From: Thermotogota bacterium
GTDB taxonomy: Bacteria > Bipolaricaulota > Bipolaricaulia > UBA7950 > UBA9294
Assembly (NCBI GenBank): GCA_039679545.1
Contig: JBDKUT010000055.1
Coordinates: 1 to 22,715, forward strand
DNA: 22,715 bases
Direction: 5' to 3'
Both the position numbers and the translations under genes were made by a program. Under the pieces are notes generated by a model. The model did not search any database. It was given only the letters and a program-made list of their open reading frames with translations, and had not been told where the DNA came from. Of the stretch, positions 1-15,077 are shown one piece after another (positions within the stretch are counted from its first letter, which is position 1; every line of letters begins with the position of its first letter).

Positions 1-1
1 G

Positions 2-868
2 ATCCGCGAGCGCGACGCGCTCGCGAACAAGACGTCGCGCACCGAGACGGAGGAGAAGGCCCTCACGACCTTCAAGCAGCAGGCCGCCGACCTGTACGCC
101 ACCACCGTCGCCCGGTATGAAGACGGGCTCAAGAACGGCGGCGGACTCGACATCGACATCAAGCTGGGCAACGCACACCTCGCAATGGGGAAGGTCGCCG
201 ACGCCGAGCGCGAGTTCCACTCAGTGATCGTGCGCTCTCCGTACCGTGCCGACGCCTACGAAGGAATGGGCAACGTCGACCTCGCCAAAGGCCAGACGGC
301 GGACGCTCTCACGCAGTTCCGCACGGCCCTCTCGCGCTCATTCGATACGCAGCAGCGAGAACGGCTGGCGACGCAGATCGTCTCCCTGGACCCCACGGAC
401 GCAGACTCGCTGTCCCGACTGGCCAAGATCTACGCCGAGCAGTACAAGTGGAGCGCAGCGGTGCGGGAGTACGCGAAGCTGATCGAGCTCAAGCCCACGA
501 TGGAGGACGCCTACCTCGGTATCGCCGAGGCGTATCGCTGGAGAACCGAGTACGACTCAGCCATTGACTACCTCAACCGCGGTCTTGCTCGCGTCGACCG
601 CGACGCGGCGAAGGTCAAGCTGTACGACTCGATCGTGACGACCGTGCAGGCCGAGGTGGGGCAGGGCAAGCCGCTCTCGCCGGTCGGGCTCGACGCGCTG
701 ATCGAGTCGGCCAAGATTCAGCTTGCCCGCGGGAACACGTCGGACGCGCTCGCGCGCCTTGAGAAGGTCCGCACGGCGGACGCCAAGTACCGAGCGGACG
801 AAGTCGGTACGTTGATCGTCCAAGCCGGTGGTACTCCGGCCGGTGGCCCAGCGGGGAGCACGCCGTAG
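2..868 (+). CDS. Tetratricopeptide repeat (TPR) protein, 5'-truncated by the window edge
   Basis: Frame is open from base 2 (IRERDALANK...LGNAHLAMGK). It has repeated TPR-like helices (AYEGMGNVDLAKGQTADAL; LSRLAKIYAEQYKWSAAVREY; AYLGIAEAYRWRTEYDSAI). Stop TAG at 866-868. Confidence 0.85.
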   Translation: MRERDALANKTSRTETEEKALTTFKQQAADLYATTVARYEDGLKNGGGLDIDIKLGNAHLAMGKVADAEREFHSVIVRSPYRADAYEGMGNVDLAKGQTADALTQFRTALSRSFDTQQRERLATQIVSLDPTDADSLSRLAKIYAEQYKWSAAVREYAKLIELKPTMEDAYLGIAEAYRWRTEYDSAIDYLNRGLARVDRDAAKVKLYDSIVTTVQAEVGQGKPLSPVGLDALIESAKIQLARGNTSDALARLEKVRTADAKYRADEVGTLIVQAGGTPAGGPAGSTP

Positions 869-869
869 G

Positions 870-1475
870 ATGAGCCAACGGCTCACCCGCCTCGTCGATC
901 TGATCGGTCGGTTGCGCGATCCCGAAGGCGGCTGCCCCTGGGATCGCGCGCAGGATCACCGAACGCTTCGTCCTTACGTGGTTGAGGAGGCGTACGAGGT
1001 CGTTGCCGCTATTGACAGCGACGATCCGCACGAGCTCAAGTCCGAGCTCGGTGACCTTCTTCTTCAGGTTCTCCTTCACAGCCGAATCGCCGAAGAGGCG
1101 GGGGAGTTCACCCTGGACGACGTGATGGAGGGGTTGGCGGAGAAGCTCGAGCGCCGACACCCGCACGTGTTCGGAGACGCGCCGTCCGACCTTTCGTCGA
1201 TTCGAACGCGATGGGATGCGATCAAGGCGTCCGAGCCAAGGCGACAAAAGGCTGAGCTGCCTCCACTTCTCGCAGCGCGCAAGCTCGTCTCCTCGCTTCC
1301 CGAAGGTGCGTCCGTCGAAGATCTCCTCGATCCCGTCGACGACGAAGAGCGGGCAGGTCTCGAGCTCCTCGCCGCGGTGGCGCGCGCGTGGGAAAGCGGT
1401 GTCGATCCCGAGATCGCCCTGCGGAAGGTTGTCGATGCCGTACGCGTTCGCTCGGGGGACCCGCATGGCCGGTAA
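870..1475 (+). CDS. mazG: MazG-family nucleoside triphosphate pyrophosphohydrolase (short form)
   Basis: RLRDPEGGCPWD, EEAYE, ELGDLLLQVLLHS and KLERRHPHVFG are MazG signatures. ATG at 870 lies 1 nt after the upstream stop. The C-terminal domain looks shortened. Confidence 0.9.
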   Translation: MSQRLTRLVDLIGRLRDPEGGCPWDRAQDHRTLRPYVVEEAYEVVAAIDSDDPHELKSELGDLLLQVLLHSRIAEEAGEFTLDDVMEGLAEKLERRHPHVFGDAPSDLSSIRTRWDAIKASEPRRQKAELPPLLAARKLVSSLPEGASVEDLLDPVDDEERAGLELLAAVARAWESGVDPEIALRKVVDAVRVRSGDPHGR

Positions 1476-1737
1476 GCGATTCTGCGGCGCCGCGGTCTAT
1501 TGGATTGCAACCACCGAAGAGGAGATCCACTTCGTCGACGCCATCGTCAGTGCCCACGACGGCCTTGCGACCGTCCGGCGGGAGTTCAAGCTCCAGGACG
1601 GCTCTGCGATGTACAAGGTCTACGTCGCGGAAGGCATGGAGGACGAGTTCCTCGAGGTCATGGATCGTCTGAAGGCGCACGCCCAGATCGGCGCCGTGCT
1701 GCGGGGAGGCGAAGATGGGCCTGCTCAGAGCGCATGA
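1465..1737 (+). CDS. Small conserved protein, DUF4911-like
   Basis: MAGKRF...EEIHFVDAIVSAHDGLATVRR resembles the DUF4911 pattern (I..l..i.EaydGlatvr). It overlaps both neighbours and has host-like codon usage. Confidence 0.6.
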   Translation: MAGKRFCGAAVYWIATTEEEIHFVDAIVSAHDGLATVRREFKLQDGSAMYKVYVAEGMEDEFLEVMDRLKAHAQIGAVLRGGEDGPAQSA

Positions 1738-2143
1738 GGTTGCGCACTCGATCTTCGACGTCGACTACTCCCGTCTCTGGGCGAGCGGGAAGCGGGCCGT
1801 GATCTTCGACCTCGACAACACCCTCGGCGAGCGGAGGGCCAGCAAGCTGCGTCCCGACGTGCGCAAGCTCCTCGACGACCTCCGCGCCCGCGGCTTCCGC
1901 GTCGGCGTGTTGACGAACCGCCGCTGGCGGAGCGTGGAGACCCTCATCGTGGAGCTCGGACCGGAAATGCCCCTCGTGCGAATGGCCCACAAGCCTTCGC
2001 GAAAGGGCTACGCCACACTCCTCGCTCGGCTCGGGGTCTCGGCCGCCGAGACCGTCATGATCGGCGACCGCACGTTGACCGACGTCTTTGGCGCCAATCG
2101 GTGCGGGATCCATTCGATCCGCGTCTCCGGCTTCTCGTCCTAG
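1715..2143 (+). CDS. YqeG-family HAD IIIA phosphatase
   Basis: HAD motif I FDLDNTL, motif II LTN, HKP, and motif IV MIGDRTLTDVFGANR. Confidence 0.88.
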   Translation: MGLLRAHEVAHSIFDVDYSRLWASGKRAVIFDLDNTLGERRASKLRPDVRKLLDDLRARGFRVGVLTNRRWRSVETLIVELGPEMPLVRMAHKPSRKGYATLLARLGVSAAETVMIGDRTLTDVFGANRCGIHSIRVSGFSS

Positions 2144-2167
2144 GCCGTCCTCCCTACGCGGCGCGGG

Positions 2168-2196
2168 TTGGTGGCTCCTGCGGCGTCGGCTATCAT
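2168..2196 (+). promoter_or_regulatory. Possible sigma70-type promoter for argF and the downstream cit/aconitase genes
   Basis: TTGGTG (2168-2173), 17-nt spacer, TATCAT (2191-2196) in the first real intergenic gap. Confidence 0.35.
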
Positions 2197-2255
2197 CCCA
2201 CCGTCCGGGGACGTCCCGGAAGCCACGTCAGGACGTGCAGGAGGGTCGGCCGACG

Positions 2256-3167
2256 ATGAACGCCCATCACTTGATTTCGCTCGCAAGTCTCAGCTCGGAA
2301 GAGGTCTTCGAGATCCTCGAGACCGCCCGGAACCTCAAGCTCGAACACCGTGCCGGGATTCGCCACACGATGCTCGCGGGGAAGACTCTGGCGATGGTGT
2401 TCCAGAAGCCGTCCCTGCGGACGCGCGTCTCCTTCGAAGCGGGGATGGAGCAGCTCGGCGGCCACGCGATCTACCTCGGCCCGAGCGACATCAAGCTTGG
2501 GGAGCGCGAGACGACCGAGGATATCGCCCTCAACCTGTCGCGGTTTGTCGACGGGATCATGGCACGCGTGTTCAAGCACGACACGATTCTCGAGCTGGCC
2601 GAGCACTCGACGGTGCCCGTGATCAACGGCCTGTGCGACCTCCACCACCCGTGCCAAGGGCTGGCGGACCTCCTGACCGTGTGGGAGAAAAAGCGCGACT
2701 TCGAGGGACTGACGCTCACCTTCGTCGGCGACGGGAACAACGTCGCCCACTCGCTCATTGAGGGGTGCGCCAAGGTCGGCATGGGGTTCCGCATCGCCTG
2801 CCCGAAGGGGTACGAGCCGGACGCGAAGATCGTCGCCGCGGCGCGTGCGCTGGGCGCTTCCGTCGAGGTCCTCCACGATCCGCGCGAGGCCGCGTCGGGA
2901 GCCGACGTCCTCTACACGGACGTCTGGGTGAGCATGGGGCAGGAGACGGAGGCGAAGTCGAAGCAGAACGCGTTCGAGGGATTCACGATCGACAAGAAGC
3001 TCCTCGGTGCGGCGAAGAAGGACGCGATCGTCATGCACTGCCTGCCGGCGCACTACGACGAGGAGATCACCTACGAGGCCTCGCGGAGCCCGGGCAGCGC
3101 GATCTTCGACCAGGCCGAGAACCGGATGCACGCGCAGAAGGCGGTCCTGGCTCTTCTGATGAAGTAG
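2256..3167 (+). CDS. argF: Ornithine carbamoyltransferase
   Basis: Carbamoyl-phosphate motif FQKPSLRTRVSFE, HPCQ, GDGNNVA, ornithine loop YTDVWVSMGQE, HCLPA and QAENRMH. RBS AGGAGG precedes ATG 2256. Confidence 0.95.
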   Translation: MNAHHLISLASLSSEEVFEILETARNLKLEHRAGIRHTMLAGKTLAMVFQKPSLRTRVSFEAGMEQLGGHAIYLGPSDIKLGERETTEDIALNLSRFVDGIMARVFKHDTILELAEHSTVPVINGLCDLHHPCQGLADLLTVWEKKRDFEGLTLTFVGDGNNVAHSLIEGCAKVGMGFRIACPKGYEPDAKIVAAARALGASVEVLHDPREAASGADVLYTDVWVSMGQETEAKSKQNAFEGFTIDKKLLGAAKKDAIVMHCLPAHYDEEITYEASRSPGSAIFDQAENRMHAQKAVLALLMK

Positions 3168-3189
3168 GGACGTGGGACAAGGAGGGACG

Positions 3190-4356
3190 ATGGAGGCTCG
3201 AGTCGGGTCGGATGCGAAAGCAGACTGCCTCGTCGTAGCCCGACAAGCAGAGCGGGCGTCCGTGGCGGTCGCCACGAAGAACCGGAACCTCCTGGAGACC
3301 GGGATTCGCGCGGTCGCCGAAGGCGTACTCGACGCGCTCGGGAAGCCCGGCGTCGTGGTGGAGGTGCAGGATCAAGGAGCCCTCGACTACGTCCTCGCCG
3401 CGCGGATCGAGGCCGCCGTCCGAATGGTGCTCCCGGAGACGAAGCTGACCCGCACGGAGCAGGTCGAACGGGCGATGTCCGATCCCGCCCGGCCGCGCCG
3501 CAGTCGGCTCTACGCGCCGGGAAACAACCCGCGCCTTCTCGTCGGAATCGACATCCACGGTGCCGACTGCGTCCTCCTCGACCTCGAGGACTCCGTGCCA
3601 CCCGGAGACAAAACCGCGGCACGCGTGCTTGTGCGGCGTCTCCTCGCCGCCGTTCCCTTCCCTGACGAAGTGTGGGTCCGCATCAATCCGCTCGATGCCG
3701 GCGGGCGTGAGGATCTGTCCGAGGTGCTCGAAGGACGGCCGCACGGGGTCTGCCTGCCGAAGGCCGAGAGTGGCGAGGGCGTCCGCGAGCTCGCGGAGGA
3801 GCTCGGGAAGGTCGAGCGGCGACTTGGCTTCGGCGTCGGCTCGACGCACATCATGCCGATCATCGAGACGGCACGCGGCGTCCTCCGCTGCGAGGATGTG
3901 GCGGAGGCCGACGAGCGCGTTGTCGTTGTTGCGTTCGGTGCCGAAGACTACACCCGCGATGTGGGGGCCCGCAGGACGGACGATGCGCTCCTCTTCGCGC
4001 GGTCGCGCGTCGTGGCCGCCGCCAAGGCGGCCGGCGTCCAAGCTTCGGACACCGTGTACGCCGACCTCTCCAACGACGCCGGCCTGGCCGACGAGTGTGC
4101 CCGAGCCCGCGACCTCGGGTTCGACGGCAAGGGTGCGATCAACCCTCGACAGATTCCGATCCTCCATCGTGCCTTCTCGCCGAGCGAGGATGAGCTCGCG
4201 AAGGCGCGGGCGATCGTCGAGGCGGCGCGCGAGGCCGAAACCCGCGGGCTGGGCGCCGTCGCCGTCGACGGACGGATGGTCGATCAGCCTGTCCTCGAGC
4301 GGGCGCGACGGCTGATCAAGTACGCCGAGACGCTCGCAAACGGAGGTGCGGCATGA
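3190..4356 (+). CDS. citE: Fusion of a degenerate citrate-lyase ACP (CitD/gamma-like) domain and citryl-CoA/ACP lyase (CitE/beta)
   Basis: The first ~80 aa match the CitD pattern (VEVQDQGALDYVLAARIEAAV). The rest matches CitE (RRSRLYAPGNNP, DLEDSV, VRIN, LPKAE, FGAEDY, DTVYAD, LGFDGKGAINPRQI). RBS GGAGG precedes ATG 3190. Confidence 0.88.
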   Translation: MEARVGSDAKADCLVVARQAERASVAVATKNRNLLETGIRAVAEGVLDALGKPGVVVEVQDQGALDYVLAARIEAAVRMVLPETKLTRTEQVERAMSDPARPRRSRLYAPGNNPRLLVGIDIHGADCVLLDLEDSVPPGDKTAARVLVRRLLAAVPFPDEVWVRINPLDAGGREDLSEVLEGRPHGVCLPKAESGEGVRELAEELGKVERRLGFGVGSTHIMPIIETARGVLRCEDVAEADERVVVVAFGAEDYTRDVGARRTDDALLFARSRVVAAAKAAGVQASDTVYADLSNDAGLADECARARDLGFDGKGAINPRQIPILHRAFSPSEDELAKARAIVEAAREAETRGLGAVAVDGRMVDQPVLERARRLIKYAETLANGGAA

Positions 4357-5900
4357 CCCGGAACGCCCTAGGACGCGAGATTCCCGGCAAGATCGGAAGC
4401 CGGAAGGCGGTCCCATTCGGTGGAGCGTTCGCCAAGGTCTCGACGGGAACCAAGGCGCCGCGGCCGCAGAAGGTTGCTCCGCAGCACGAGGACAAGGTCC
4501 TCCCGTCGATCGAAGCGGCGATCGAGGCGTGCGGCCTCTCGAACGGGATGACGATCTCGTTCCACCACTCGTTCCGCGAGGGCGACCGCGTCATCAACCT
4601 CGTCCTTGACGCGTGCGCACGCATGGGGCTGAAGGATCTACGGATCTGCCCGACGGCCCTGTTCGGGATCCACGAGCCCATCGTCGGGCACATCGAGTCC
4701 GGCGTCGTGTCGCGGATCGAAGGGTCGATGAACGGCCCCGTCGGCGCGTTCATCAGCAAGGGCGGAAAGCTGCGGGAGCCGGCGGTCCTCCGCTCGCACG
4801 GGGGGCGCTGGCGGGCGATCGAAGCGGGGACGATGGAGATCGACGTCGCGTTCATCGCCGCGCCGCAGGCGGATCCGTACGGGAACGCGACCGGCATCCG
4901 CGGCAAGACCCCGTGCGGACCCATCGCGTTCCAGGCCGTCGACGCCCAGTACGCGCGGAAGACGGTCGTCGTGACCAACGACCTTGCGCCTTACCCCGAT
5001 TTCCCGATGGAGATCCAGCAAGGGTGGACCGACTATGTGGTCGTCGTCGACGAGATCGGCGACCCGGCGTCGATCACCTCGGGGACGCTGCAGCTCACGA
5101 ATTCGCCGACGAACCTCCTCATCGCGCGGCTCACGGTGGAGGCCGTGAAGGCGTCGGGGTACTTCAAGGACGGGTTCAGCTTCCAGGGCGGGGCCGGAGG
5201 TCTGTCGCTCGCGGCGACGAAGTTCCTCGGCGACGAGATGGAGAAGGCGAAGATCGTCGGCTCCTTCGGGATGGGCGGCGGAACGAAGATGCTCGTCGAC
5301 ATGCTGCGGCGCGGCCAGATCCGCGCCATCCTCGACGGGCAGGCGTTCGACCTCGACGCGATCGCCTCGCTCCGCGAGGACCCGGCGCACGTGATGATGG
5401 ATCCGGGGATGTACGCGAACTACGACTCGCGCGGGTGCTCGACCTACAAGCTCGACGCCGCCTTCCTTGGGGCGACCGAAGTCGACCTCGACTTCAACGT
5501 CAACGTGAACACCCATTCCGACGGGCAGCTCTTGCACGGGATCGGCGGCCATCAGGACGTCGCAGCCGGCGCGGCGATGACAATGATCACGCTCCCCGCG
5601 CTGCGCGGGCGAATCCCGCCGATCGTCGACCGGGTGACCACCGTGACGACGCCGGGCGAGGTCATCGACGTGGTCGTCACCGAGCGAGGGCTTGCCGTGA
5701 ACCCGTGTCGCGGGGACCTTCGCGAGCGCTTCCGGGCCGCGGGACTCCCCGTGCGGGAGCTTGGGGACATCAAGCGGGACGCGGACCGGTACATTCAGCC
5801 GGTGCGCCGCCCTGTGTTCGGGGACGAGGTCATCGCCGCGATCGAATGGCGGGACGGGACCGTGATCGACGTGGTGCGAAAGGTGGAAGGATGGCAGTGA
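4353..5900 (+). CDS. citF: Citrate lyase alpha subunit / citrate CoA-transferase
   Basis: GMTISFHHSFREGD, LRSHGGR, SGYFKDGFSFQGGAGG, GATEVDLDFNVNV, TTPGEVIDVVVTERG and WRDGTVIDVV. ATGA overlap with citE. Confidence 0.93.
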   Translation: MTRNALGREIPGKIGSRKAVPFGGAFAKVSTGTKAPRPQKVAPQHEDKVLPSIEAAIEACGLSNGMTISFHHSFREGDRVINLVLDACARMGLKDLRICPTALFGIHEPIVGHIESGVVSRIEGSMNGPVGAFISKGGKLREPAVLRSHGGRWRAIEAGTMEIDVAFIAAPQADPYGNATGIRGKTPCGPIAFQAVDAQYARKTVVVTNDLAPYPDFPMEIQQGWTDYVVVVDEIGDPASITSGTLQLTNSPTNLLIARLTVEAVKASGYFKDGFSFQGGAGGLSLAATKFLGDEMEKAKIVGSFGMGGGTKMLVDMLRRGQIRAILDGQAFDLDAIASLREDPAHVMMDPGMYANYDSRGCSTYKLDAAFLGATEVDLDFNVNVNTHSDGQLLHGIGGHQDVAAGAAMTMITLPALRGRIPPIVDRVTTVTTPGEVIDVVVTERGLAVNPCRGDLRERFRAAGLPVRELGDIKRDADRYIQPVRRPVFGDEVIAAIEWRDGTVIDVVRKVEGWQ

Positions 5901-6427
5901 GAGACGAGATCCAGAAGATCCTACCGGAAGTTGACGAGATCAGAGACAAGACCCTGCGCGACAAGGTGCTCGCGACGTGGGAGACGGGGCTCGCCCGCGG
6001 CGGCTGGAAGCCCGCCGACATCGCCCGCATCCCGTTCACGCTTCTAAAGCCGGTGAAGATCAGCTTCGTCGACCACGTGCGCAGCGTGACCAAGATCTGC
6101 ATCGCGGTCTCCGAAACGTTTGACGAGATCTACAAGGGGGAGCTGAAGCTCAACCGCGACATCCTGATTGCCGGCGCGCTGCTCCACGACGTGGGCAAGC
6201 TGCTCGAGATCCAGGAGAAGGACGGCAAGTTCGGGAAATCAAAGGACGGGACCCTCGTGCGGCACCCGTTCTCCGGGCTCGCCCTCGCTGACGCGCAGGG
6301 ACTTCCCGCCGAGGTTCTCCACATCATCGGCTGCCACTCCAAAGAGGGCGACCACGGGAAGCGGACGGCCGAGGCGATCATCCTTCATCTGGCCGACTTC
6401 ATGAACTTCGATCCGTTGGAGGGATAA
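5891..6427 (+). CDS. HD (HDIG-type) metal-dependent phosphohydrolase domain protein
   Basis: H...GALLHDVGK...RHPFSG...HIIGCHSKEG...EAIILHLAD. Start at ATG 5891 or GTG 5897, overlapping the citF end. It is the 3' part of the 4613..6427 track ORF. Confidence 0.88.
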   Translation: MAVRDEIQKILPEVDEIRDKTLRDKVLATWETGLARGGWKPADIARIPFTLLKPVKISFVDHVRSVTKICIAVSETFDEIYKGELKLNRDILIAGALLHDVGKLLEIQEKDGKFGKSKDGTLVRHPFSGLALADAQGLPAEVLHIIGCHSKEGDHGKRTAEAIILHLADFMNFDPLEG

Positions 6428-6432
6428 GGCGC

Positions 6433-7704
6433 ATGGGACAGACGTTCGCCCAGAAAGTGTTGGCGAAGAAGTCGGGGCTGCCGCGGGTTCTTGTCGGGCA
6501 GATCGTCGACGTCGAGCCCGACGTCTGCATGTCGCACGACAACACCGCGGCCATCGCGAAGACATTCGCCAAGATCGGCGTCGAGCGCGTCAAGAACCCG
6601 GAGCGGTTCGTCGTCATCCTCGACCACACCGTGCCCGCCTCGACCGAGGAGTACGCGAAGGGTCACAAGGAGATCCGCGAGTTCGTCGCGAAGCAAGGGA
6701 TCACGGCGTTCTACGACGTCGGCGTCGGCGTCTGCCACCAGGTGCTCCCCGAGATGGGGTACGCGCTCCCCGGTCGCCTCATTGTCGGTTCGGACTCGCA
6801 CACCACGGCGTACGGGGCGCTCGGCGCCTTCTCCGTCGGTGTCGGCCGCTCGGAGATGGCCGCGCTTTACGCCACGTCGCGCATCTGGCTCAAGACCCCG
6901 GCGTCGTTCAAGATTGACGTTCGCGGGAAGCTGAGGGAGCCGCTGACGTCGAAGGACCTCGTCCTCAAGATCATCGGCGACATCGGCGCCGACGGAGCAC
7001 TCTACAAGTCCGTGGAGTTGGCCGGCGAGGCGATCGAGGCGATGAGCGTCGCCTCGCGCCTCGTCCTCTCGAACATGGCGATCGAGATGGGCGCGAAGAA
7101 CGGCTACTGCGCGCCCGACAAGAAGACGTTTGCCTTTCTCGAGCCGCGCGCCCAGGCGGAGTACACGCCCATCTACCCCGACCCCGATGCCGAGTATGAG
7201 AAGGTGCTCACCTACGACGCGTCGAAGCTGGGGCCTCAGGTCGCGAAGCCGCACACCGTCGACAACGTCGCCCCCGTCGAGGAGGTTGAGGGGACGAAGA
7301 TCGACCAAGCGCTTCTCGGGACGTGTACGAACGGCCGGCTCGAGGACCTGCACCTGGCGGCCCGGTACTTGGAGGGCAGGAAGCTTGCGAAGGGCGTCCG
7401 CATGATCGTCCTTCCCGCGTCGCGCGAGGTCCTGTTGGATGCCATGCGCGAGGGACTGGTCGAGATCTTCCTTCGCGCCGGCGCGATGGTCCTGAACCCC
7501 GGCTGCGGCCCGTGCCTCGGCGCGCATCAGGGCGTGCTTGCCGCGGGCGAGGTCTGCATCTCCACCGCGAACCGGAACTTCCAGGGCCGCATGGGGTCGA
7601 ACGAGGCGGCGACGTACCTCGCGTCGCCGGCGACCGTCGCCGCGTCCGCCGTGGCCGGTGTGATCGCCGATCCGAGGAAAGCCGTTCGTGGAGGTGGCGC
7701 ATGA
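6433..7704 (+). CDS. Aconitase-family dehydratase large subunit (LeuC/HacA type, homoaconitase-like)
   Basis: MSHDN, DH, GVCHQ, GSDSHT, Fe-S ligands GTCTNGR and PGCGPCLG, and STANRNFQGRMG. Confidence 0.93.
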   Translation: MGQTFAQKVLAKKSGLPRVLVGQIVDVEPDVCMSHDNTAAIAKTFAKIGVERVKNPERFVVILDHTVPASTEEYAKGHKEIREFVAKQGITAFYDVGVGVCHQVLPEMGYALPGRLIVGSDSHTTAYGALGAFSVGVGRSEMAALYATSRIWLKTPASFKIDVRGKLREPLTSKDLVLKIIGDIGADGALYKSVELAGEAIEAMSVASRLVLSNMAIEMGAKNGYCAPDKKTFAFLEPRAQAEYTPIYPDPDAEYEKVLTYDASKLGPQVAKPHTVDNVAPVEEVEGTKIDQALLGTCTNGRLEDLHLAARYLEGRKLAKGVRMIVLPASREVLLDAMREGLVEIFLRAGAMVLNPGCGPCLGAHQGVLAAGEVCISTANRNFQGRMGSNEAATYLASPATVAASAVAGVIADPRKAVRGGGA

Positions 7705-8192
7705 TCGAGGGGAAGGTCTGGAAGTACGGTGACGACGTCAACACCGACGTCATCTTCGCCGGCAAGTACACCTACAAGCCGATGACCCCGGCCGAGATGG
7801 CCGAGCACGCGCTCGAGGACCTCGACCCGACGTTCGCCAAGGGCGTGAAGCCCGGGGACCTCATCGTCGCCGGCGCGAACTTCGGCTGCGGCTCGTCGCG
7901 CGAGCAGGCGGCCACGTGCGTCAAGGCGTCGGGGGTCGCCGCCGTTATCGCCGTCTCGTTCTCGCGGATCTTCTTCCGGAACGCCATCAACGAGGGCCTG
8001 CCGGTCGTCGAACTCGCGTCGGGGACGTCGATGATCGCCAAGGACGACACCGTCCGAATCGACTTCGACAAGGGCGTCGTTACGCACAAAGGGAAGGAGT
8101 ACCGCTTCCCGGCGCTGCCGAAGGAAGTCCTCGCCATCCTGAACGACGGCGGCCTCATCCCGCACGTGAAGAAGACGCTCGCCAAACTGTAG
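7701..8192 (+). CDS. Aconitase-family dehydratase small subunit (LeuD/HacB type)
   Basis: GDDVNTDVIFAGKYTY, NFGCGSSREQA and SFSRIFFRNAINEG. ATGA overlap with the large subunit and RBS GGAGGT. Confidence 0.93.
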   Translation: MIEGKVWKYGDDVNTDVIFAGKYTYKPMTPAEMAEHALEDLDPTFAKGVKPGDLIVAGANFGCGSSREQAATCVKASGVAAVIAVSFSRIFFRNAINEGLPVVELASGTSMIAKDDTVRIDFDKGVVTHKGKEYRFPALPKEVLAILNDGGLIPHVKKTLAKL

Positions 8193-8218
8193 GGTCTGGC
8201 AAGGACCAGGCCCAGCGC

Positions 8219-8413
8219 CTACGTCGCTCGCAGCTCGCCGGGAAGCAGGCTGTACAGGATAACGTCGGACGAGCCGCTGTCTTCGATCGCGTAGCCCGGG
8301 TGGGCCGTCTTGAACGGTGCTACCTCGGTGATCGACTCGCAGACGGCCTCGTGGAGCAGCCTAGCATCGGCCTCTTGCAACGCTCGAACCCGAACCTGTC
8401 CCTCTTGAGCCAT
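8219..8413 (-). pseudogene. Internally deleted RimJ/RimL-type GNAT acetyltransferase relic
   Basis: The 64 aa MAQEGQVRVRALQEADARLLHEAVCESITEVAPFKTAHPGYAIEDS-GS-SDVILYSLLPGELRAT join a RimL-like N-terminus directly to a RimL-like C-terminus. Confidence 0.6.
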
Positions 8414-8460
8414 CTCGCTTCTCGTCGCGTCCGTAGCGTGGCCGACGCGCGCGGAGGCCG

Positions 8461-9357
8461 TCAGGTCAAGAGCCACAAGAGGACGCTCGTGGCGGCGACG
8501 CCGGCGATTGTCGTCAGGAGGACAACGGCGGCGCTCAGCTCGGAGCGGCGGTTGTACTGGAGCGAGAGGATGAGGGCGTTGACGGCCGTGGGGGTTCCCG
8601 CCTCGAGAATCAGCACGGAGCTCACCAGCTTGTCGAACCCGAACAGGACGGCGAGGCCCCAGGCGACGAGGGGTGGGACGACCAGCTTCGCCACGGAGAG
8701 CGGGACGGCCTGGCGGACGAGGCCACCAAGACGAACCTGGGTGAGCGTCATCCCGAGGAGCAGAAGCTGAATCGGGATCGTCGCATCGGCAAGCATCTCG
8801 ATGGGGCGACCTACGGCCACAGGGAGCTGGAACCCCGTGAGTCGAACGACGACTCCAAGCACGATGGCGAGAAGCCACGGGACGGCGCAGATCTCCCGAA
8901 TCAGTCCGCGGATCGACATGCCCTTACGCCAACTCGCGATACCTACGCCGAACAGCACCTGGAACGCGAGTTGCGCGACCATGTACACGACGCCCACCGC
9001 GAACCCCTCGTCGCCGAACGCGAAGAGGAGGACCGGGAGCCCGTAGATACCGCAGTTTCCGAACGTGAGGGATAGGACGGCGGCCGTCTTTGTATCCGAG
9101 TCCCAGTGCGTCCAACGGACGCCGAGGGAAGCGAGCAGAAGAAACGCCCCGTGAACCGCGAACACGAACAAGGTGACGTTCACGAGAACGGTTCCAGAGA
9201 GGGAGTGGCTGAGCATTGAGTTAAAGATCAGGATCGGGGTCAGGACGTAGAACGAGAGCCGCGTGAACGGGGTCAGGTCGAACTTCACGAGCCGTGCGAA
9301 CAGGTACCCCGCACCGGCGATCAGCACCACAGGAACGATGACGTTGACGAGGAACAT
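8461..9357 (-). CDS. AEC (auxin efflux carrier) family transporter
   Basis: About 10 hydrophobic segments with FGNCGIYGLPV, ATIPIQLLLLG, KLVVPP and GTPTAVN motifs. Confidence 0.92.
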   Translation of the reverse strand: MFLVNVIVPVVLIAGAGYLFARLVKFDLTPFTRLSFYVLTPILIFNSMLSHSLSGTVLVNVTLFVFAVHGAFLLLASLGVRWTHWDSDTKTAAVLSLTFGNCGIYGLPVLLFAFGDEGFAVGVVYMVAQLAFQVLFGVGIASWRKGMSIRGLIREICAVPWLLAIVLGVVVRLTGFQLPVAVGRPIEMLADATIPIQLLLLGMTLTQVRLGGLVRQAVPLSVAKLVVPPLVAWGLAVLFGFDKLVSSVLILEAGTPTAVNALILSLQYNRRSELSAAVVLLTTIAGVAATSVLLWLLT

Positions 9358-9385
9358 CCCTCACCCCTTGGGGGGCAAGGCTACT

Positions 9386-9476
9386 GGAGTGACTGCACGT
9401 GTGCAACGCCCCCTGCGCCGGAAGCGGGGAGAACGTTGCGGCGGAGCCCTCTCTTCGCGATAGTGTGCGTCACTCC
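9386..9476 (+). other. Candidate structured RNA (three-way junction) in the leader of the cysteine desulfidase gene
   Basis: P1: GGAGTGAC(T)GCAC 9386-9398 with GTGCGTCACTCC 9465-9476. P2: GCAACG with CGTTGC plus CCCTGC with GCGGGG. P3: GCGGAG 9441-9446 with CTTCGC 9453-9458. Confidence 0.4.
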
Positions 9477-9515
9477 GAAGGCACCGTAGGGTGGAGTCTG
9501 CTAGGAAGGAGACGC

Positions 9516-10832
9516 ATGGGCTATACGGTCAAAGACATCCTCCGCATGGAAGTTGCTCCCGCGCTTGGCTGTACGGAACCGTCGGCGGTCGCACTGGCGA
9601 CGGCGGCCGCGGCGTCGCTTCTCCCGCGCCGTTCGATCGACGGGATCGAATTGTGGGTCGACCCCAACATCTACAAGAACGGATTTGCCGTCTCAATTCC
9701 AGGCACCGAGGGGGAGTCGGGCATCGACCTCTCGGCCGCCCTCGGAGCCCTCGGCGGCGATCCCCACCTCAAGCTCGAAGTCCTACGGCCGATCTCGCGC
9801 GAAACGCTGAAGGCGTCGAAGGCCCTTGTGGCTCGGAAGAGCGTGGTCGTCAATGTCCTCGGGGAGAGAAAGACCGGGATCTACATCCGCGCGCAGCTTC
9901 GGTCCGGGACGCAGACAGCCGAGGCGGTCATCGAGGACGTCCACGATAACATCGTCGCTCTGTCTCTCGACGGACATCGTGTGGAGAGTCACCCGCTCCT
10001 CTGCGGAGCCTCGAAGAGCCAGAACAACGTCCGCGCGCTCGAGGAATGGCTTGCCGACCGCACCCTGCCGGAGCTGATCGCCCTTCTCGACGATCTCGAC
10101 AGCGACGACCTTGCCTTCCTCCGCGAAGGTGTCGACCAGAACATGAGGCTTGCCGAGTACGGGCTCACCTACGGCCCCGGGCTCGGCGTCGGTCTCGCCC
10201 TCGAGCGCCTGGTTCGGGAAGGACTCCTGAAGAAGGACATGATCCTCGCGGCGCGCATCCTCACCTCAGCGGCGTCAGACGCCCGCATGGCCGGCGTGAA
10301 GATGCCGGCCATGAGCTCGGCCGGATCGGGCAACCATGGCCTGACGGCGATCCTTCCCATCTGGGCGGTCAAGGACTACGTTGCCTGTGACGACGAGGAC
10401 TGCGTTCTGCGGGCGATCGCCCTAAGCCACGTGATCACCGCCCACATCAAAGCGCACACCGGTCGACTCTCGGCGATCTGCGGCTGCTCCATCGCCGCCG
10501 GGGCCGGCGCGACCGGCGGGATCACGTACCTGATGGGCGGAAACCACCGCCACATCGCCGGCGCGATCAAGAACGTCATCGGCGATCTCGCCGGCGTGAT
10601 CTGCGACGGCGCCAAGGCCGGCTGCTCGCTCAAGCTCGCCACGGCGGCGGGAACGGCCGTTCAGTCGGCGCTCTTCGCCCTGCACGGCCTCGACGTTCAA
10701 CCGACCGACGGGATCGTTGCCGTTTCTCCTGAGGAGACGATGCGCAACGTCGGCCAGCTCTCGACCCAAGGCATGATCGAGACCGATCGTACGATTCTCG
10801 ACATCATGATCCAGAAGCGGTTCGAGAACTGA
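9516..10832 (+). CDS. L-cysteine desulfidase, CyuA/YhaM (serine dehydratase alpha-like) family
   Basis: PALGCTEP, NIYKN, ASDARMAG, MSSAGSGNHG, GRLSAICGC, GVICDGAKAGCSLK and GMIETD. RBS AAGGAG precedes ATG 9516. Confidence 0.9.
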   Translation: MGYTVKDILRMEVAPALGCTEPSAVALATAAAASLLPRRSIDGIELWVDPNIYKNGFAVSIPGTEGESGIDLSAALGALGGDPHLKLEVLRPISRETLKASKALVARKSVVVNVLGERKTGIYIRAQLRSGTQTAEAVIEDVHDNIVALSLDGHRVESHPLLCGASKSQNNVRALEEWLADRTLPELIALLDDLDSDDLAFLREGVDQNMRLAEYGLTYGPGLGVGLALERLVREGLLKKDMILAARILTSAASDARMAGVKMPAMSSAGSGNHGLTAILPIWAVKDYVACDDEDCVLRAIALSHVITAHIKAHTGRLSAICGCSIAAGAGATGGITYLMGGNHRHIAGAIKNVIGDLAGVICDGAKAGCSLKLATAAGTAVQSALFALHGLDVQPTDGIVAVSPEETMRNVGQLSTQGMIETDRTILDIMIQKRFEN

Positions 10833-10847
10833 GGGGGAGCCTCACTT

Positions 10848-10870
10848 CCAGCCTCGAGAGTCGAGGCTGG
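10848..10870 (+). terminator. GC-rich hairpin after the desulfidase (possible terminator or stabiliser)
   Basis: Perfect 10-bp stem CCAGCCTCGA/TCGAGGCTGG with a GAG loop. There is no U-tract. Confidence 0.4.
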
Positions 10871-10975
10871 GACCGCATCGCAGGTGAGTTGGGTCTGGTC
10901 TATGATCGTTGACGCTGCGGCGCGACGAGGGATCTGTCCGTCGCGGTTGCGGCGAAGAACCTGGGGGCGGCGGTC

Positions 10976-11686
10976 ATGGTAGAGACGTACTCGAAGATGG
11001 CGCGATACTACGACAAGATCTACGGGGGAAAAGACTACGCGGCCGAGGTCGAGCGCCTGATCGCGGTTCTGGGCGACGGGCGAAGCAAGCGGCGCAGTCT
11101 GCTCGACGTCGCCTGCGGCACCGGCCGCCACCTCGAGTACCTGCGGAGAAGCTTCGATGTCGAAGGACTCGACATCTGCGCCGAGGTGCTGGAGAGCGCA
11201 CGCCAGCGGAATCCCGGAGTGGTCTTTCACGTTGCGGACATGACGAGCTTCGACCTCGGGAGAACGTTCGACGTCGTGACGTGTCTGTTCAGCTCGATCG
11301 GCTACGTCAGGACCCTCGATCGACTCCAGGCGGCCGTGCGCTCCATGACCGCGCATCTGAATCTTGAAGGCGTGCTCATCATCGAGCCATGGTTCACGCC
11401 CGAAGAGTGGCACCCCAATACCGTGCACGCCGTCTACATCGACGAACCAGACCTCAAAATCGCGCGCGTCAACACGAGCCTCGTCGACGGCGGTCTGTCG
11501 ATCGTTGAGCTGCACTACCTCGTCGGTACCCCCGAGAAGACGGAGCACCTCGTTGAGCGTCACGAGCTGGGCCTGTTCGAGGTTGACGAGATGATTTCTG
11601 CTCTGGAATCCGAAGGCCTGGTTGTTAGCTATGATCGGGAAGGTCTGACCGGGCGGGGACTGTACCTCGCGAGCCGCCGAAGCTGA
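10976..11686 (+). CDS. Class I SAM-dependent methyltransferase (TylM1/DesVI-like)
   Basis: YDKIY..KDYAAE, LLDVACGTGRH, FDVVTCLFSSIGY and IEPWFTPE. Confidence 0.88.
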   Translation: MVETYSKMARYYDKIYGGKDYAAEVERLIAVLGDGRSKRRSLLDVACGTGRHLEYLRRSFDVEGLDICAEVLESARQRNPGVVFHVADMTSFDLGRTFDVVTCLFSSIGYVRTLDRLQAAVRSMTAHLNLEGVLIIEPWFTPEEWHPNTVHAVYIDEPDLKIARVNTSLVDGGLSIVELHYLVGTPEKTEHLVERHELGLFEVDEMISALESEGLVVSYDREGLTGRGLYLASRRS

Positions 11687-11706
11687 CCACGCGTAGCGGG
11701 AGGGGA

Positions 11707-12531
11707 ATGGACGATCGGGACGTCGGACGGGTGTGGAACGGGAACGCCGAAGCCTGGACGCGACTTGCCCGCGCCGGCTACGACGTCTACCGCGACGCGC
11801 TCAACACCCCGGCGTTCCTGGCGATGCTCCCCGACGTCCGCGGCCTGGGCGGCCTCGACGTCGGCTGCGGGGAAGGCCACAACACCCGGCTGATTGCGAA
11901 GCGCGGCGCCCGCCTCGCTGCCGTCGACATTGCCGACGTCTTCATCCGACACGCGCGCGAGGAAGAAGAGCGCGAGCCGCTCGGCATCGACTACCGCGTC
12001 GCGAGCGCTCTCGAGCTTCCATTCCCGGACTGCACCTTCGACTTCGTGACTGCGGTGATGTGCCTGATGGACATGCCGAACGTCGAACGTGCCGTCGCCG
12101 AGGTCTACCGTGTGCTCAAGCCGGGAGGGTTCTTCCAGTTCTCGATCACCCATCCTTGCTTCGACACCCCGCACCGCAAGAACCTGCGCGACGAGCGAAG
12201 GAGGACCTACGCCATCGAGGTTGGAGGCTACTTCCAGAGGCTCCATGGCGACATCGAGGAGTGGATCTTCAGTGCGGCGCCCGCCGAGGTGCGCCAAGGC
12301 TTGCCGAACTTCAAGGTCCCCCGGTTCACGCGAACGGTCAGCGAGTGGTTCAACATGCTCATGGAGAGGGGGTTCCGGATCGAGCGCGTCGAGGAGCCTT
12401 GCCCGTCGGACGCTGTCGTCGAGCGGTGTCCGCAAGTTCAGGACGCGCAGGTGGTCGCCTACTTCCTGCACATCAGGGTTCACAAACCTGCCGCCGGACG
12501 CGACAATAGACGAGGAGGTACCCCGGCATGA
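11707..12531 (+). CDS. Class I SAM-dependent methyltransferase
   Basis: LDVGCGEGHNTR, LPFPDCTFDFV and RVLKPGGFFQFSITHPCF. Confidence 0.9.
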   Translation: MDDRDVGRVWNGNAEAWTRLARAGYDVYRDALNTPAFLAMLPDVRGLGGLDVGCGEGHNTRLIAKRGARLAAVDIADVFIRHAREEEEREPLGIDYRVASALELPFPDCTFDFVTAVMCLMDMPNVERAVAEVYRVLKPGGFFQFSITHPCFDTPHRKNLRDERRRTYAIEVGGYFQRLHGDIEEWIFSAAPAEVRQGLPNFKVPRFTRTVSEWFNMLMERGFRIERVEEPCPSDAVVERCPQVQDAQVVAYFLHIRVHKPAAGRDNRRGGTPA

Positions 12532-12995
12532 AGAAGTCCGAGATGATTGCCACCTGTGGGCTGGATTGCGGGTCGTGCTCCATCCGCAGGTTCCCGCGCG
12601 ACAAAGCTGCAGCAACGGAAGTGATCGGCTGGTTCAAGCAGGAGGGCTGGCTCAAGGAGGGGGAAGGCGTCGCCGAAGCGATCGAGCGGAAGATGGTCTG
12701 CAACGGCTGCCACGGCGACCGCACGGCCCACTGGTCGGCCGACTGCTGGATTCTCCACTGCTGCGTCGACGCGAAGGGGCTCAAGCACTGCTCCGAGTGC
12801 AAGACGTTCCCCTGTGCCCGGCTCGTCGAGTGGTCGAAGACCGACGAATCGTACGGCAAGGCATTCGACCGCCTACGGTCAATGCATGCGGGGCTGACTC
12901 GTCACACCATTCCGCGCCGCGAACGGAAACCGAAGAGAGTGAGTGACCTCGGCACGGAGCGAGACGACGCCCCCGAAGACGAAACCACGGTGTGA
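12528..12995 (+). CDS. DUF3795-family Cys-rich protein
   Basis: CGLDCGSC, CNGC, CWILHCC and HCSECKTFPC. ATGA overlap with the upstream gene and RBS GGAGG. Confidence 0.85.
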   Translation: MKKSEMIATCGLDCGSCSIRRFPRDKAAATEVIGWFKQEGWLKEGEGVAEAIERKMVCNGCHGDRTAHWSADCWILHCCVDAKGLKHCSECKTFPCARLVEWSKTDESYGKAFDRLRSMHAGLTRHTIPRRERKPKRVSDLGTERDDAPEDETTV

Positions 12996-13016
12996 CCGGC
13001 GCGAGAGCTGCGACGT

Positions 13017-13048
13017 GAAGGCCTGTGCAGCGAGGCGCACAGGCCTTC
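13017..13048 (+). terminator. Hairpin downstream of the methyltransferase-DUF3795 unit
   Basis: Perfect 12-bp inverted repeat GAAGGCCTGTGC / GCACAGGCCTTC with an 8-nt loop, followed by CTTGT. Confidence 0.5.
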
Positions 13049-13240
13049 CTTGTCCTGTGGCCGGGGTGAGAGCAGGAAAGAAGAAGACGGCCGGGGGGTG
13101 GAGCAACTCGGCGGTTGAACGAGAAGCTGTATCTTGTTTGGCGGCGCTCGCTCGGCCGAAGCGCGCGCGGGTGAGTACAGATCGCGGCGCAGGAGACGGC
13201 CTGGCCTTTGAGGTCGCCTTGCGTCTGAAAGGAGTACCGG

Positions 13241-13642
13241 ATGGCGAAGACGAACCTCGAGTGGCGCGGCCGCTTCGACAACCGGGAACTGAACGAACTT
13301 CACGCCGAGGCATTCGATCACCCCGTCCTCGACGCAGAAGACTGGGTCGGCCAGGTTCGGTCGCACAGCCTCGGCTGGGTGACAGCGCGGGAAGGAAGGG
13401 GCCTCGTGGGTTTCGTCAACGTGGTGTGGGACGGCGGCGTCCACGCCTTCATCCTCGACACGATGGTGAAAAAGGAAAAGAAGAGGCAGGGTCTCGGCAC
13501 GCGGCTTGTGAAGGAAGCGACTCAGCACGCGCGAGCCGCCGGCTGCGAGTGGCTGCATGTCGACTTCGAGGACGAGCTCCACTCGTTCTATTGCAGCGCG
13601 TGCGGGTTCGAGTCCACGTCGGCAGGGCTCATCAGGCTCTGA
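13241..13642 (+). CDS. GNAT family N-acetyltransferase
   Basis: LVGFVNVVWDGGVHAFILDTMV, RQGLGTRLV (acetyl-CoA motif), WLHVDFE and FY..CGF. RBS AAGGAG. Confidence 0.9.
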   Translation: MAKTNLEWRGRFDNRELNELHAEAFDHPVLDAEDWVGQVRSHSLGWVTAREGRGLVGFVNVVWDGGVHAFILDTMVKKEKKRQGLGTRLVKEATQHARAAGCEWLHVDFEDELHSFYCSACGFESTSAGLIRL

Positions 13643-13667
13643 CCGCGGAAGGAAGGACGCGGTGGGG

Positions 13668-14186
13668 ATGACCGTCGTTCGTGCAGAGCTCTCGGGCGAC
13701 ATCGCCGCCGTACGCCGGGTCAACGACCGAGCCTTCGGCCGGGCGGCCGAGGGTGCTGTTGTTGACCAGCTTCGTGATGCCTGTCCCGACGCCGTGTCGC
13801 TCGTTGCCGACGAGGACGGTGAGATCCTCGGTCACGTCTTCTTCAGCCCTGTGCTCGTCACGCGTGACGGCGGGGTCGTTCGAGAGGGGATGGGTCTTGG
13901 CCCCCTCGCCGTCGCGCCCGAGCGGCAGCGGCAGGGCATTGGCTCCGCGCTCGTTCGAGCCGGTGTTGACATCCTGCGCGATCGAGGTTGCCCGTTCGTC
14001 CTCGTCATCGGCCACCCTTCGTACTATCCACGGTTCGGGTTCACCCTCGCGTCTGGCCGAGGCCTCGTACCGCAATGGGATGGAATCCCCGACGAAGCGT
14101 TTAGGGTGCTGGTGCTCGACGAGCGCGCCATGGCGGGCGTGACCGGCGTCGCCAGCTACCGCAGCGAGTTCGACCAGGCCGTGTGA
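13668..14186 (+). CDS. GNAT family N-acetyltransferase (YhbS-like)
   Basis: GHVFFSPV, LGPLAVAPERQRQGIGSALV and VIGHPSYYPRFGF. Confidence 0.92.
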   Translation: MTVVRAELSGDIAAVRRVNDRAFGRAAEGAVVDQLRDACPDAVSLVADEDGEILGHVFFSPVLVTRDGGVVREGMGLGPLAVAPERQRQGIGSALVRAGVDILRDRGCPFVLVIGHPSYYPRFGFTLASGRGLVPQWDGIPDEAFRVLVLDERAMAGVTGVASYRSEFDQAV

Positions 14187-14249
14187 CGGCCACGCTCGGC
14201 GCCGGCGTGCAATCAGCTGTTCGTTGTGCTGCGCTGCGAGGGCCACACC

Positions 14250-15077
14250 CTACTCCCACGTCGAAGCCCAATCTTGAATCGTATACGAGACCGCCTTCCC
14301 CGCTGCGTCGAGGGAGGCGAGGTCGAGGATGCCGACGCGATCGAAGCGGTGCAGGTAGTAAATGTACGCGACCCCGTGCGTGAGGTCGAAGACGTTCGAG
14401 TAGGTCGTCTCCGATGGGCCGCGGAGGTTCGCGACGGAGCCAAGGATTTCAGCGAACGCCGCGATCGACAAGATGGAGTCCCCGGTCACGATCCGCTCCA
14501 ATGCGCGGGTCGTTATCCTGTGTCGCGGACAGTTCTTGTGGGTGATGGGGTAGACGGCGACGTTGGTGTTCGTCGTGACCTGGAAGGCGGCCTCCGAATA
14601 GATGAATGCGTGCTCTCCGTCGGGCCCTGGGGCGACGACGACCGATCTGCCGCTGCGATCGGTGAACTGGAGCTGCGCCCTCTGCAGGTAGCTCACGTTG
14701 TACGACTGGATCAGCGCCACGACCTCCTCGATCGTGGCGCAGCGGCGCAAGGCGATCTCGCCGACGTTGATCGGATTCGGCGTCGGCAGCTCAGGGTGGT
14801 CGTTGAGCGGTGTGTGCGCAATCGTGGCCGCGTCGAACGCCAGCCCGGCTGTGTTCATCCCGCCTTGGGCGAAGTCGGCGTCGAAACCGAGAAAGAGACA
14901 CCCATACTCGTTTCCGAGGGAGGGGAGGTACCAGATGAGCGCGCTGGAGTCCGCGTGGTCTTCGCTGTTCCCGAACAGGACGAGTCCGTCGCCTGCGTAG
15001 GAGAAGAACGTGCACGCCGCCGTGGCGGACGAGAGCGCGCAGAAGAGGACGAGGGCCGAGGCTACGTGTCGCTGCAT
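14250..15077 (-). CDS. Secreted N-terminal-nucleophile (Cys) hydrolase, C45/choloylglycine hydrolase-like
   Basis: A signal peptide ending ...SATAA precedes CTFF, then LFGNSED, QGGMNTAGL, LRRCATIEE, TNTN and TTYSNVFDL. RBS GGAGGT. Confidence 0.8.
   Translation of the reverse strand: MQRHVASALVLFCALSSATAACTFFSYAGDGLVLFGNSEDHADSSALIWYLPSLGNEYGCLFLGFDADFAQGGMNTAGLAFDAATIAHTPLNDHPELPTPNPINVGEIALRRCATIEEVVALIQSYNVSYLQRAQLQFTDRSGRSVVVAPGPDGEHAFIYSEAAFQVTTNTNVAVYPITHKNCPRHRITTRALERIVTGDSILSIAAFAEILGSVANLRGPSETTYSNVFDLTHGVAYIYYLHRFDRVGILDLASLDAAGKAVSYTIQDWASTWE

Follow-up and report, generated by a model that had tools for sequence, protein, structure and literature searches.

A seven-gene citrate lyase-like module of Candidatus Bipolaricaulota, very likely carrier independent and possibly homocitrate cleaving

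We have analyzed a 22,715-nt stretch of DNA (the window) from a Thermotogota bacterium (assembly GCA_039679545.1, contig JBDKUT010000055.1, forward strand), close relatives of which carry the label Candidatus Bipolaricaulota. An operon in this window encodes a CitD-like acyl carrier protein (ACP) domain fused to a CitE-type lyase (ACP-CitE), the coenzyme A (CoA)-transferase CitF, a small HD-domain protein, and the hydratase subunits HacA and HacB; it is part of a seven-gene module that also includes a beta-decarboxylating dehydrogenase and a PrpD-family protein. The module is real and conserved and, judging from its sequences, very likely works without a covalent carrier, its most likely role being in a homocitrate-cleaving route for 2-oxoadipate. 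Every part comes from a known family; by sequence, however, membership in classical citrate lyase, LeuCD, PrpD, and lysine biosynthesis fails. A literature search found no description of this combination, most subscription journals and all supplements lying outside its coverage.

A conserved seven-gene module

The five genes of the operon (Table 1) lie on one strand and translate cleanly into proteins of 388, 515, 178, 423, and 163 amino acids. They are tightly coupled: the first and second genes share a 4-nt ATGA (4353-4356), as do the fourth and fifth (7701-7704); the second and third overlap by 10 nt (5891-5900), and 5 nt (6428-6432) separate the third from the fourth. An earlier note on this DNA had described these five open reading frames (ORFs) and their junctions, all of which proved to be as it gave them; its gene set was correct in linking the five but missed the dehydrogenase and the PrpD-family protein, or the second LeuCD-like pair found in some relatives.

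Conservation was assessed in 184 genomes of the phylum, with presence and absence counted in the 74 genomes that are at least 90% complete and gene order in 20 wide loci from relatives, picked for their long contigs. CitF was matched in 96 of the 184 genomes, mostly at 59 to 96% identity, four matches in family f2 and a few others being weak or fragmentary; a contig scan with the single CitF protein gave 13 loci, all from close relatives and none from a named outside phylum. The order ACP-CitE, CitF, HD, HacA is kept in 19 of the 20 wide loci, and HacB comes next in 13. The linkage, whose conservation in other genomes the earlier note had proposed as a check, is not a matter of chance.

The assembly itself (G000, 93.55% complete) holds two genes of the Iso_dh family. 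One, on contig C64, encodes an NADP-dependent isocitrate dehydrogenase (NADP-IDH) and lies beside aclB with a small aconitase gene nearby; the other, on contig C124, encodes the beta-decarboxylating dehydrogenase and is followed by the PrpD-family gene. Orthologs of the C124 pair stand directly after hacB in the same operon in G005, G009, and G013, making seven contiguous genes. The C124-type dehydrogenase was present in 41 of the 42 CitF-positive genomes among the 74, and within family f3 (22 genomes) CitF and the dehydrogenase occur in an identical set of 14, the 99%-complete G006 having neither. The PrpD ortholog was found in 34 of the 74 genomes and the second LeuCD-like pair (HacA2B2) in 8, the two never together; G002 has neither, and its dehydrogenase contig stops soon after that gene. 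HacA2B2 forms a group of its own (tree support, 100/100). Members of this family (L095, L097-L099, L102, L201, L202, and several metagenome loci) carry RDF(A/G)G in place of the HDN motif and an HN loop in the small subunit, and the pair substitutes for PrpD.

Going by source labels, the HD family extends further, to Chloroflexota, Planctomycetota, Fidelibacterota, and Thermoplasmatota. Another module gene accompanies it in 35 of 49 metagenome loci, compared to 1 of 31 for unrelated HD proteins, and 13 of the 14 loci without a module gene are shorter than 3.2 kb. In one RNA run (word share, 0.06), contigs of relatives, mostly less than 95% identical, cover 30 of 30 bins of positions 2200-8300; they also cover the neighboring genes (28 of 30 bins of positions 1-12500), and since library DNA may be involved, these data were not used as evidence of expression.

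A carrier domain without the attachment serine

The first protein carries the ACP domain PF06857 at residues 2-78 and the CitE-type barrel PF03328 at about residues 101-380. Its CitE part is 42% identical to Escherichia coli CitE, and its scores fall below the cutoffs of TIGR01588 (citE; 267 against 443) and TIGR01608 (32 against 63.5), so that it is not a CitE equivalog. In E. coli CitD, Ser14 is the residue that we take to be the attachment site of the prosthetic group. In a 55-row alignment that includes the window protein twice, this column reads lysine in 34 rows, arginine in 16, serine in 3 (E. coli twice and one spurious fragment), and a gap in 2; all 50 copies that cover the site therefore have lysine or arginine, and the window protein has Lys10.

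In classical citrate lyase the prosthetic group is built by CitG and CitX and acetylated by CitC (PMC10798043). The earlier note had reported that citC, citG, and citX are absent from the window, which is the case, and none of the three was found in the rest of the 93.55%-complete assembly. Among the 74 genomes, citG and citC were each found in none, with positive E. coli controls; the citX search covered the genome of the window.

The lyase slot of the operon also occurs in two other forms. Locus L138 combines CitF with a citrate-synthase-fold lyase and contains neither ACP nor CitE, and G095, G097, and L130 have an ATP-grasp ligase with a SucD/citrate-synthase-fold fusion protein. Citrate-synthase-fold lyases and ATP-grasp ligase/lyase enzymes act on free CoA esters. 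Given the lysine or arginine in the Ser14 column and the absence of citG and citC from 74 genomes, a free-CoA mechanism with no covalent carrier is very likely for the module, and the independence from holo-ACP suggested by the earlier note holds up. The serine-less domain would then act as a tether or a CoA-binding element.

CitF is 44% identical to E. coli CitF and passes the TIGR01584 equivalog for the citrate lyase alpha subunit (Table 1), which, together with an assembly that is not complete, could be taken to mean a classical holo-ACP citrate lyase with its maturation genes elsewhere or unassembled. We consider this extremely improbable: the missing serine and the counts of 0 of 74 for citG and citC largely refute it. 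In the module CitF, the motif NTHSDGxLLHGIGG replaces the E. coli-type active-site motif, and residues T387 to G399 are invariant apart from position 392 in 34 aligned copies.

Two observations on related loci may be added. L120:405-6246 is a carrier-less citrate lyase-like operon without hydratases, comprising a citrate-transporter-family gene, HD, a free CitD with lysine in the Ser14 column, CitE, a classical-like CitF, and a LysR gene. In L090 (G097:C10) and L196 (G095:C6), where the ligase and fusion protein replace CitEF, the ligase loop reads FGGISSCD and is not of the ATP-citrate lyase (ACL) type; this ligase may represent a new family of CoA ligases, members of which would be mistaken for ACL.

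Substrate specificity of the dehydrogenase and hydratases

One indication of substrate comes from the substrate loop of the dehydrogenase. The loop YxSPIV is present in 37 of 41 dehydrogenase ORFs of at least 50% identity, the other 4 being fragments that lack the loop, and the C124 version, YSSPIV, is identical to that of the Schizosaccharomyces pombe homoisocitrate dehydrogenase (HICDH; 3ty3), whereas Thermus HICDH differs from it. IDH loops read IRSLNV, as in the true IDH of this genome, or FSSINV, and their asparagine is replaced in all 37 covered copies. In a tree, the dehydrogenases of the module cluster together (support, 96/100), separate from LeuB and IDH. The same 37 covered copies all have the coenzyme motif HGSAPKY, as in NADP-type IDH, whereas NAD enzymes read HGSAPDI; we take the K-Y pair to specify NADP, and NADPH would favor the carboxylation direction.

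HacAB is not an equivalog of LeuC or LeuD (TIGR02083, 484 against a cutoff of 611; TIGR02084, 171 against 246), and with regard to a leuA/leuB context, no PF00682 was found anywhere in the genome. In the same operon slot, L113, L121, and L129 have fused hydratases that are members of TIGR00139 (scores of 744, 729, and 726; cutoff, 530) and share the HDN and YTY motifs with the window HacAB. HacB grouped with these fused enzymes at 98/96, in a tree that retained the motif columns and whose bootstrap had yet to settle. Fungal and Thermus homoaconitases act only on the homoaconitate/homoisocitrate step, so that a second hydratase is required, and methylcitrate requires a syn-eliminating dehydratase (PMC3556520). 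The module keeps two separate hydratases, which, because a homoaconitase-type enzyme performs one step only, points to the homocitrate series. The PrpD-family protein has the MmgE/PrpD Pfam domains and is not a prpD equivalog (TIGR02330, 78 against 458); its family would be the one that dehydrates products of this kind on the acyl-derived arm, and a pro-3S lyase, as TIGR01588 is named, would handle (S)-homocitrate. Near a peptide ABC transporter lies another MmgE/PrpD-like gene (G000:C136:3066-4358), which is distant from the C124 gene (25% identity).

A separate citrate arm leads to the same preference for homocitrate over citrate. True ACL is present in 28 of the 42 CitF genomes, and ACL with small aconitase in 26; the latter two also occur in G006 and G007, both of which are without the module. 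On this evidence we think it rather probable that the substrate belongs to the homocitrate series. Homocitrate was among the substrates listed in the earlier note and is the best supported of them by the loop, the fungal-type hydratase, and the paired hydratases; the note's leading catabolic version, from 2-oxoglutarate through isocitrate to citrate, fares less well in a genome with a homoisocitrate-type loop in the module and a separate NADP-IDH, small aconitase, and aclB.

Several observations weigh against a homocitrate substrate. The window HacA is half the length of a TIGR00139 protein and not a member (302 bits, with HacB at 97), and its grouping with the fused members has a support of only 86/85, unstarred. 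Whole-sequence similarity does not separate IDH from HICDH substrates for the dehydrogenase: a PDB profile search gave 310 for NAD-IDH, 300 for Thermus HICDH, and 253 for S. pombe HICDH, the top match being an IDH; no HICDH cutoff was reached, the best NCBIfam match being the methanogen AksF2 model (330, below 540); and an NADP-type site is typical of IDH. Both ACL and small aconitase are missing from 10 of the 42 CitF genomes, among them the same-genus G140 and G143, and the module could therefore be their citrate system; in the present assembly aclA was not found and aclB is cut by a contig end. The ornithine carbamoyltransferase (OTC) gene is the gene most often linked to the module (directly preceding it in 14 of 20 wide loci), which points to arginine, glutamate, and 2-oxoglutarate. 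The G097 module lies among KorAB, Hdr, and fumarate reductase-like genes, as a reductive tricarboxylic acid (TCA) cycle cluster would, and in L120, which has no hydratase, the HD protein and lysine-type carrier stand next to a citrate-transporter-family gene and a CitF of classical-like type. Finally, the related genomes in all of our counts are not independent samples.

Taken together with the TIGR01584 membership of CitF, these points can be assembled into an alternative in which the module acts on citrate, with a CoA-based citrate lyase, an aconitase split between PrpD and HacAB, and an NADP-IDH linking 2-oxoglutarate (from arginine, ornithine, or glutamate) to oxaloacetate and acetate in either direction. 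We regard citrate as a distinctly less probable substrate. The SPIV sequence displaces the asparagine of the IDH SLNV/SINV loop in every covered copy, fungal-type homoaconitases occupy the hydratase slot in three loci, citrate needs no second hydratase, and most CitF genomes already have ACL and aconitase; moreover, true ACL has a GGIANFT loop that is missing from the G097 ligase, which also fails PF16114, and the active-site motif of the L120 CitF differs.

Other 2-substituted malates are improbable substrates. It can be envisioned that the module converts (S)-citramalate to 2-oxobutyrate or acts on 2-methylcitrate or a longer (homo)n-citrate, since the CitE family includes citramalyl-CoA lyases (among the PDB neighbors), PrpD is methylcitrate dehydratase, LeuCD-type enzymes are often broad, and the AksF2 model, albeit below its cutoff, gave the best NCBIfam match to the dehydrogenase. 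The dehydrogenase loop, however, is unlike the LeuB loops seen here, and LeuB and IDH lie outside the group formed by the dehydrogenases. A beta-decarboxylating dehydrogenase cannot oxidize 2-methylisocitrate, a tertiary alcohol, and methylcitrate, which the earlier note had also listed, therefore fits poorly. The same is true of its citramalate suggestion, as neither ilvC nor ilvD nor any HMGL-like synthase turned up in this genome; an isoleucine pathway was likewise not found.

Proposed route and its direction

We propose that the module converts 2-oxoadipate to 2-oxoglutarate and acetate. The dehydrogenase would add CO2 to 2-oxoadipate with NADPH, giving homoisocitrate, which HacAB would dehydrate to cis-homoaconitate; PrpD, or the second LeuCD-like pair in some relatives, would hydrate this to homocitrate, probably the (S) form. 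CitF would then transfer CoA from acetyl-CoA to homocitrate, releasing acetate, and CitE would split homocitryl-CoA into 2-oxoglutarate and acetyl-CoA. The net reaction would be 2-oxoadipate + CO2 + NADPH giving 2-oxoglutarate + acetate, with 2-oxoadipate supplied here from lysine by the lysine-ketoglutarate reductase (LKR)/saccharopine dehydrogenase (SDH) pair and 2-oxoglutarate passing on to KorAB and succinyl-CoA synthetase. Whether the whole route, including its feeding by lysine breakdown, operates in this way is about an even call.

The gene content of G000 fits a peptide fermenter that sends lysine to 2-oxoadipate. LysW, LysX, DapB, and any HMGL-like synthase, including homocitrate synthase, were not found in it, and neither were leuA, lysY, lysZ, ilvC, and ilvD; its single LysA-like gene is below the cutoff. 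Adjacent LKR and SDH genes are present (G000:C120:26298-28956), as are one aldehyde dehydrogenase gene and, on contig C160, a korAB-sucCD cluster and a LysDH-like gene that does not track the module. No acyl-CoA dehydrogenase was found in G000, which leaves no glutaryl-CoA dehydrogenase route. A search for lysine 5,6-aminomutase was uninformative, as none of the control genomes gave a match. With respect to direction, the hydrolysis of a thioester, which drives synthases, has no counterpart in a transferase/lyase pair, and values for the citrate series suggest that cleavage would be mildly favorable at millimolar acetate.

The lysine link is open to objection on several counts. LKR is present in 29 of 29 genomes of family f1 and in no other family of the phylum, and the link is thus confounded with ancestry; LKR is found in 0 of 22 f3 genomes, where the saccharopine dehydrogenase-like genes do not track the module. 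KorAB and SucCD could drain 2-oxoadipate to glutarate instead, and SDH and LKR could also run toward lysine.

The last point leads to a biosynthetic alternative, in which CitE and CitF stand in for homocitrate synthase and the 2-oxoadipate formed by the module serves lysine synthesis, finished by LysW in a few genomes or by a fungal-like saccharopine route with SDH and LKR reversed. Such a role would account for a genome that has SDH and LKR and no DapB, LysX, or homocitrate synthase, and for the lysW clusters of G136 and G138, which have no homocitrate synthase in the fetched stretches; in addition, all of the characterized HICDH and homoaconitase enzymes are biosynthetic (PMC3556520). G001 can be read either way. 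It has lysW, lysX, and, despite CitEF, its own homocitrate synthase gene beside lysW, in a cluster that contains no hydratase or dehydrogenase; it may borrow module enzymes for synthesis or use its own LeuBCD. We judge the biosynthetic direction unlikely overall: LysX occurs in only 4 of the 42 CitF genomes, f3 is without LKR, the genome lacking leuA, ilvC, ilvD, lysY, and lysZ looks like that of an amino acid auxotroph, the CoA-transferase route is not driven by thioester hydrolysis, the ATP-grasp ligase variant resembles ACL, which is normally a cleaving enzyme, and G001 keeps a separate homocitrate synthase.

In its broadest form, the catabolic proposal is that of a widespread, oxygen-independent, CO2-fixing breakdown of lysine (2-oxoadipate), in effect the fungal alpha-aminoadipate pathway run backwards with three interchangeable lyase modules and three new activities, namely, NADPH-linked reductive carboxylation of 2-oxoadipate, (S)-homocitrate hydratase, and a CoA-dependent homocitrate lyase with a serine-less pseudo-carrier; the bacterial homoaconitase could even be the source lineage of fungal Lys4. 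We hold this wider view only tentatively and think it somewhat likelier to fail than to stand.

The HD protein

The HD protein accompanies all three lyase forms and the L120 operon, which ties it to the CoA-ester step rather than to an ACP. Residues H62, D100, R124, H125, H149, and D169 are at least 90% conserved in the family. Its structure model (predicted local distance difference test score, 96.7), in which the metal-type residues are conserved, best matches the HD domain of YhaM (9h3f; template modeling score, 0.69; 19% identity), and the fold search returned generic HD matches only, indicating no function. It might perhaps be a clean-up hydrolase for the CoA-ester step.

Three other roles were considered and set aside. 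If the protein were a homocitryl-CoA hydrolase that drives synthesis, it would short-circuit the transferase or ligase; a homocitrate lactonase does not agree with L120, which has HD without hydratases; and a substitute for CitX/CitG would have no serine to modify, HD being found beside carrier-free lyases as well.

Comparison with known systems

The module shares CitF, CitE, and a CitD-like domain with the classical citrate lyase CitDEF (EC 4.1.3.6; E. coli citCDEFXG; PMC10798043) and probably the same acyl exchange followed by retro-Claisen chemistry. Unlike CitDEF, it has CitD fused to CitE, a lysine at Ser14, a different CitF active-site motif, and no citC, citG, or citX, and it is linked to HD, two hydratases, and a dehydrogenase, without a linked transporter or oxaloacetate decarboxylase.

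A homoaconitase-type hydratase, the HICDH-type loop, and the use of two hydratases are held in common with the upper alpha-aminoadipate pathway of fungi and Thermus (homocitrate synthase; aconitase with Lys4/HACN; Lys12/HICDH; PMC3556520). In the module, however, the place of the synthase is taken by a lyase/CoA-transferase pair and that of aconitase by PrpD or HacA2B2, the coenzyme motif is of the NADP type, the LysW/diaminopimelate end steps are mostly absent, and the predicted direction is the reverse. The 2-methylcitrate cycle (PrpC, PrpD, AcnB, PrpB) likewise combines a PrpD-family dehydratase with an aconitase-family enzyme that performs the second step only, whereas the module has a dehydrogenase in place of the PrpB lyase, no PrpC, and a PrpD far below the equivalog cutoff.

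ACL and the citryl-CoA synthetase/lyase of the reductive TCA cycle are reminiscent of the variant lyase slots, with an ATP-grasp ligase and citrate-synthase-fold lyase in G095, G097, and L130 and a lone citrate-synthase-fold lyase in L138. The slot ligases nevertheless lack the ACL citrate-binding loop and PF16114, and many of the same genomes carry true ACL elsewhere, in a locus of its own with IDH and aconitase.

If the proposed route is correct, anaerobic peptide fermenters have an unrecognized electron sink for lysine carbon, in which CO2 is fixed and acetate and 2-oxoglutarate are formed, and the new enzyme activities are directly testable with purified proteins. Labels such as citrate lyase, ATP-citrate lyase, leuCD, isocitrate dehydrogenase, and prpD would then be wrong in many genomes of uncultured microbes, affecting claims of carbon fixation by the reductive TCA cycle that rest on these markers. 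Even with citrate as the substrate, a lyase with neither a covalent carrier nor maturation genes departs clearly from what textbooks describe. The HD family, for its part, is an orphan whose gene context is defined.

Neighboring genes and other observations

The OTC gene ends 22 nt before the start of the module on the same strand and is probably cotranscribed with it. In an unrelated metagenome contig, an OTC gene and a carbamate kinase-like gene (by eye) follow the module (L129:18978-20534), providing a second OTC link. In G034 the gene immediately upstream of the OTC-module operon is saccharopine dehydrogenase-like, and coordinates place such a gene there in G033 and G042 as well.

Table 1. 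Positions of the module genes and associated features in the window
Feature	Position	Strand	Basis
Ornithine carbamoyltransferase (OTC, argF/arcB)	2256..3167	+	TIGR00658, 395 over 281
CitD-like carrier domain/CitE-type acyl-CoA lyase barrel fusion	3190..4356	+	PF06857 + PF03328
Lys10 codon, alignment column of E. coli CitD Ser14	3217..3219	+	55-row alignment
CitF-family CoA-transferase	4353..5900	+	TIGR01584, 547 over 501; motif NTHSDGxLLHGIGG
Small HD-domain metalloprotein	5891..6427	+	PF01966
Homoaconitase-family hydratase large subunit HacA	6433..7704	+	TIGR01343 hacA_fam, 562 over 386
Hydratase small subunit HacB, GKYTY loop	7701..8192	+	TIGR02087 LeuD/DmdB small subunit, 185 over 109

Elsewhere in the window, positions 185-2143 encode a TPR protein, MazG, a DUF4911 protein, and a HAD phosphatase, which are kept upstream of OTC in many f1 genomes. 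Positions 8461-22473 form a variable accessory region with genes for an AEC-family transporter, a serine-dehydratase-alpha-like protein, methyltransferases, a DUF3795 protein, GNATs, an MFS protein, a flavodoxin, a DUF6338 protein, an HTH_17 protein with an alpha/beta hydrolase, and an aldo-keto reductase; a small ORF near 22261 resembles HicB by eye and is without a Pfam match.

On contig C64 of the same assembly, the IDH-aclB cluster (G000:C64:1-3126 and 8833-10941), which includes an IclR gene with small aconitase nearby, is interrupted by two genes of lower GC content at third codon positions, one for an SMC/PHP-like ATPase and the other for an HD protein whose tail may be intein-like (by eye); the cluster was not found in the two same-genus genomes that are at least 90% complete. 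The same contig carries at G000:C64:11489-21992 (partly L004) a hopanoid/terpene-type cluster with phytoene desaturase-like and squalene/phytoene synthase genes (Pfam), after which come lookalikes, by eye, of IspH, squalene-hopene cyclase, IspG, a radical-SAM protein, and a prenyltransferase. This cluster, in which the cyclase label was assigned by eye only, looks unusual for an anaerobe of this phylum.

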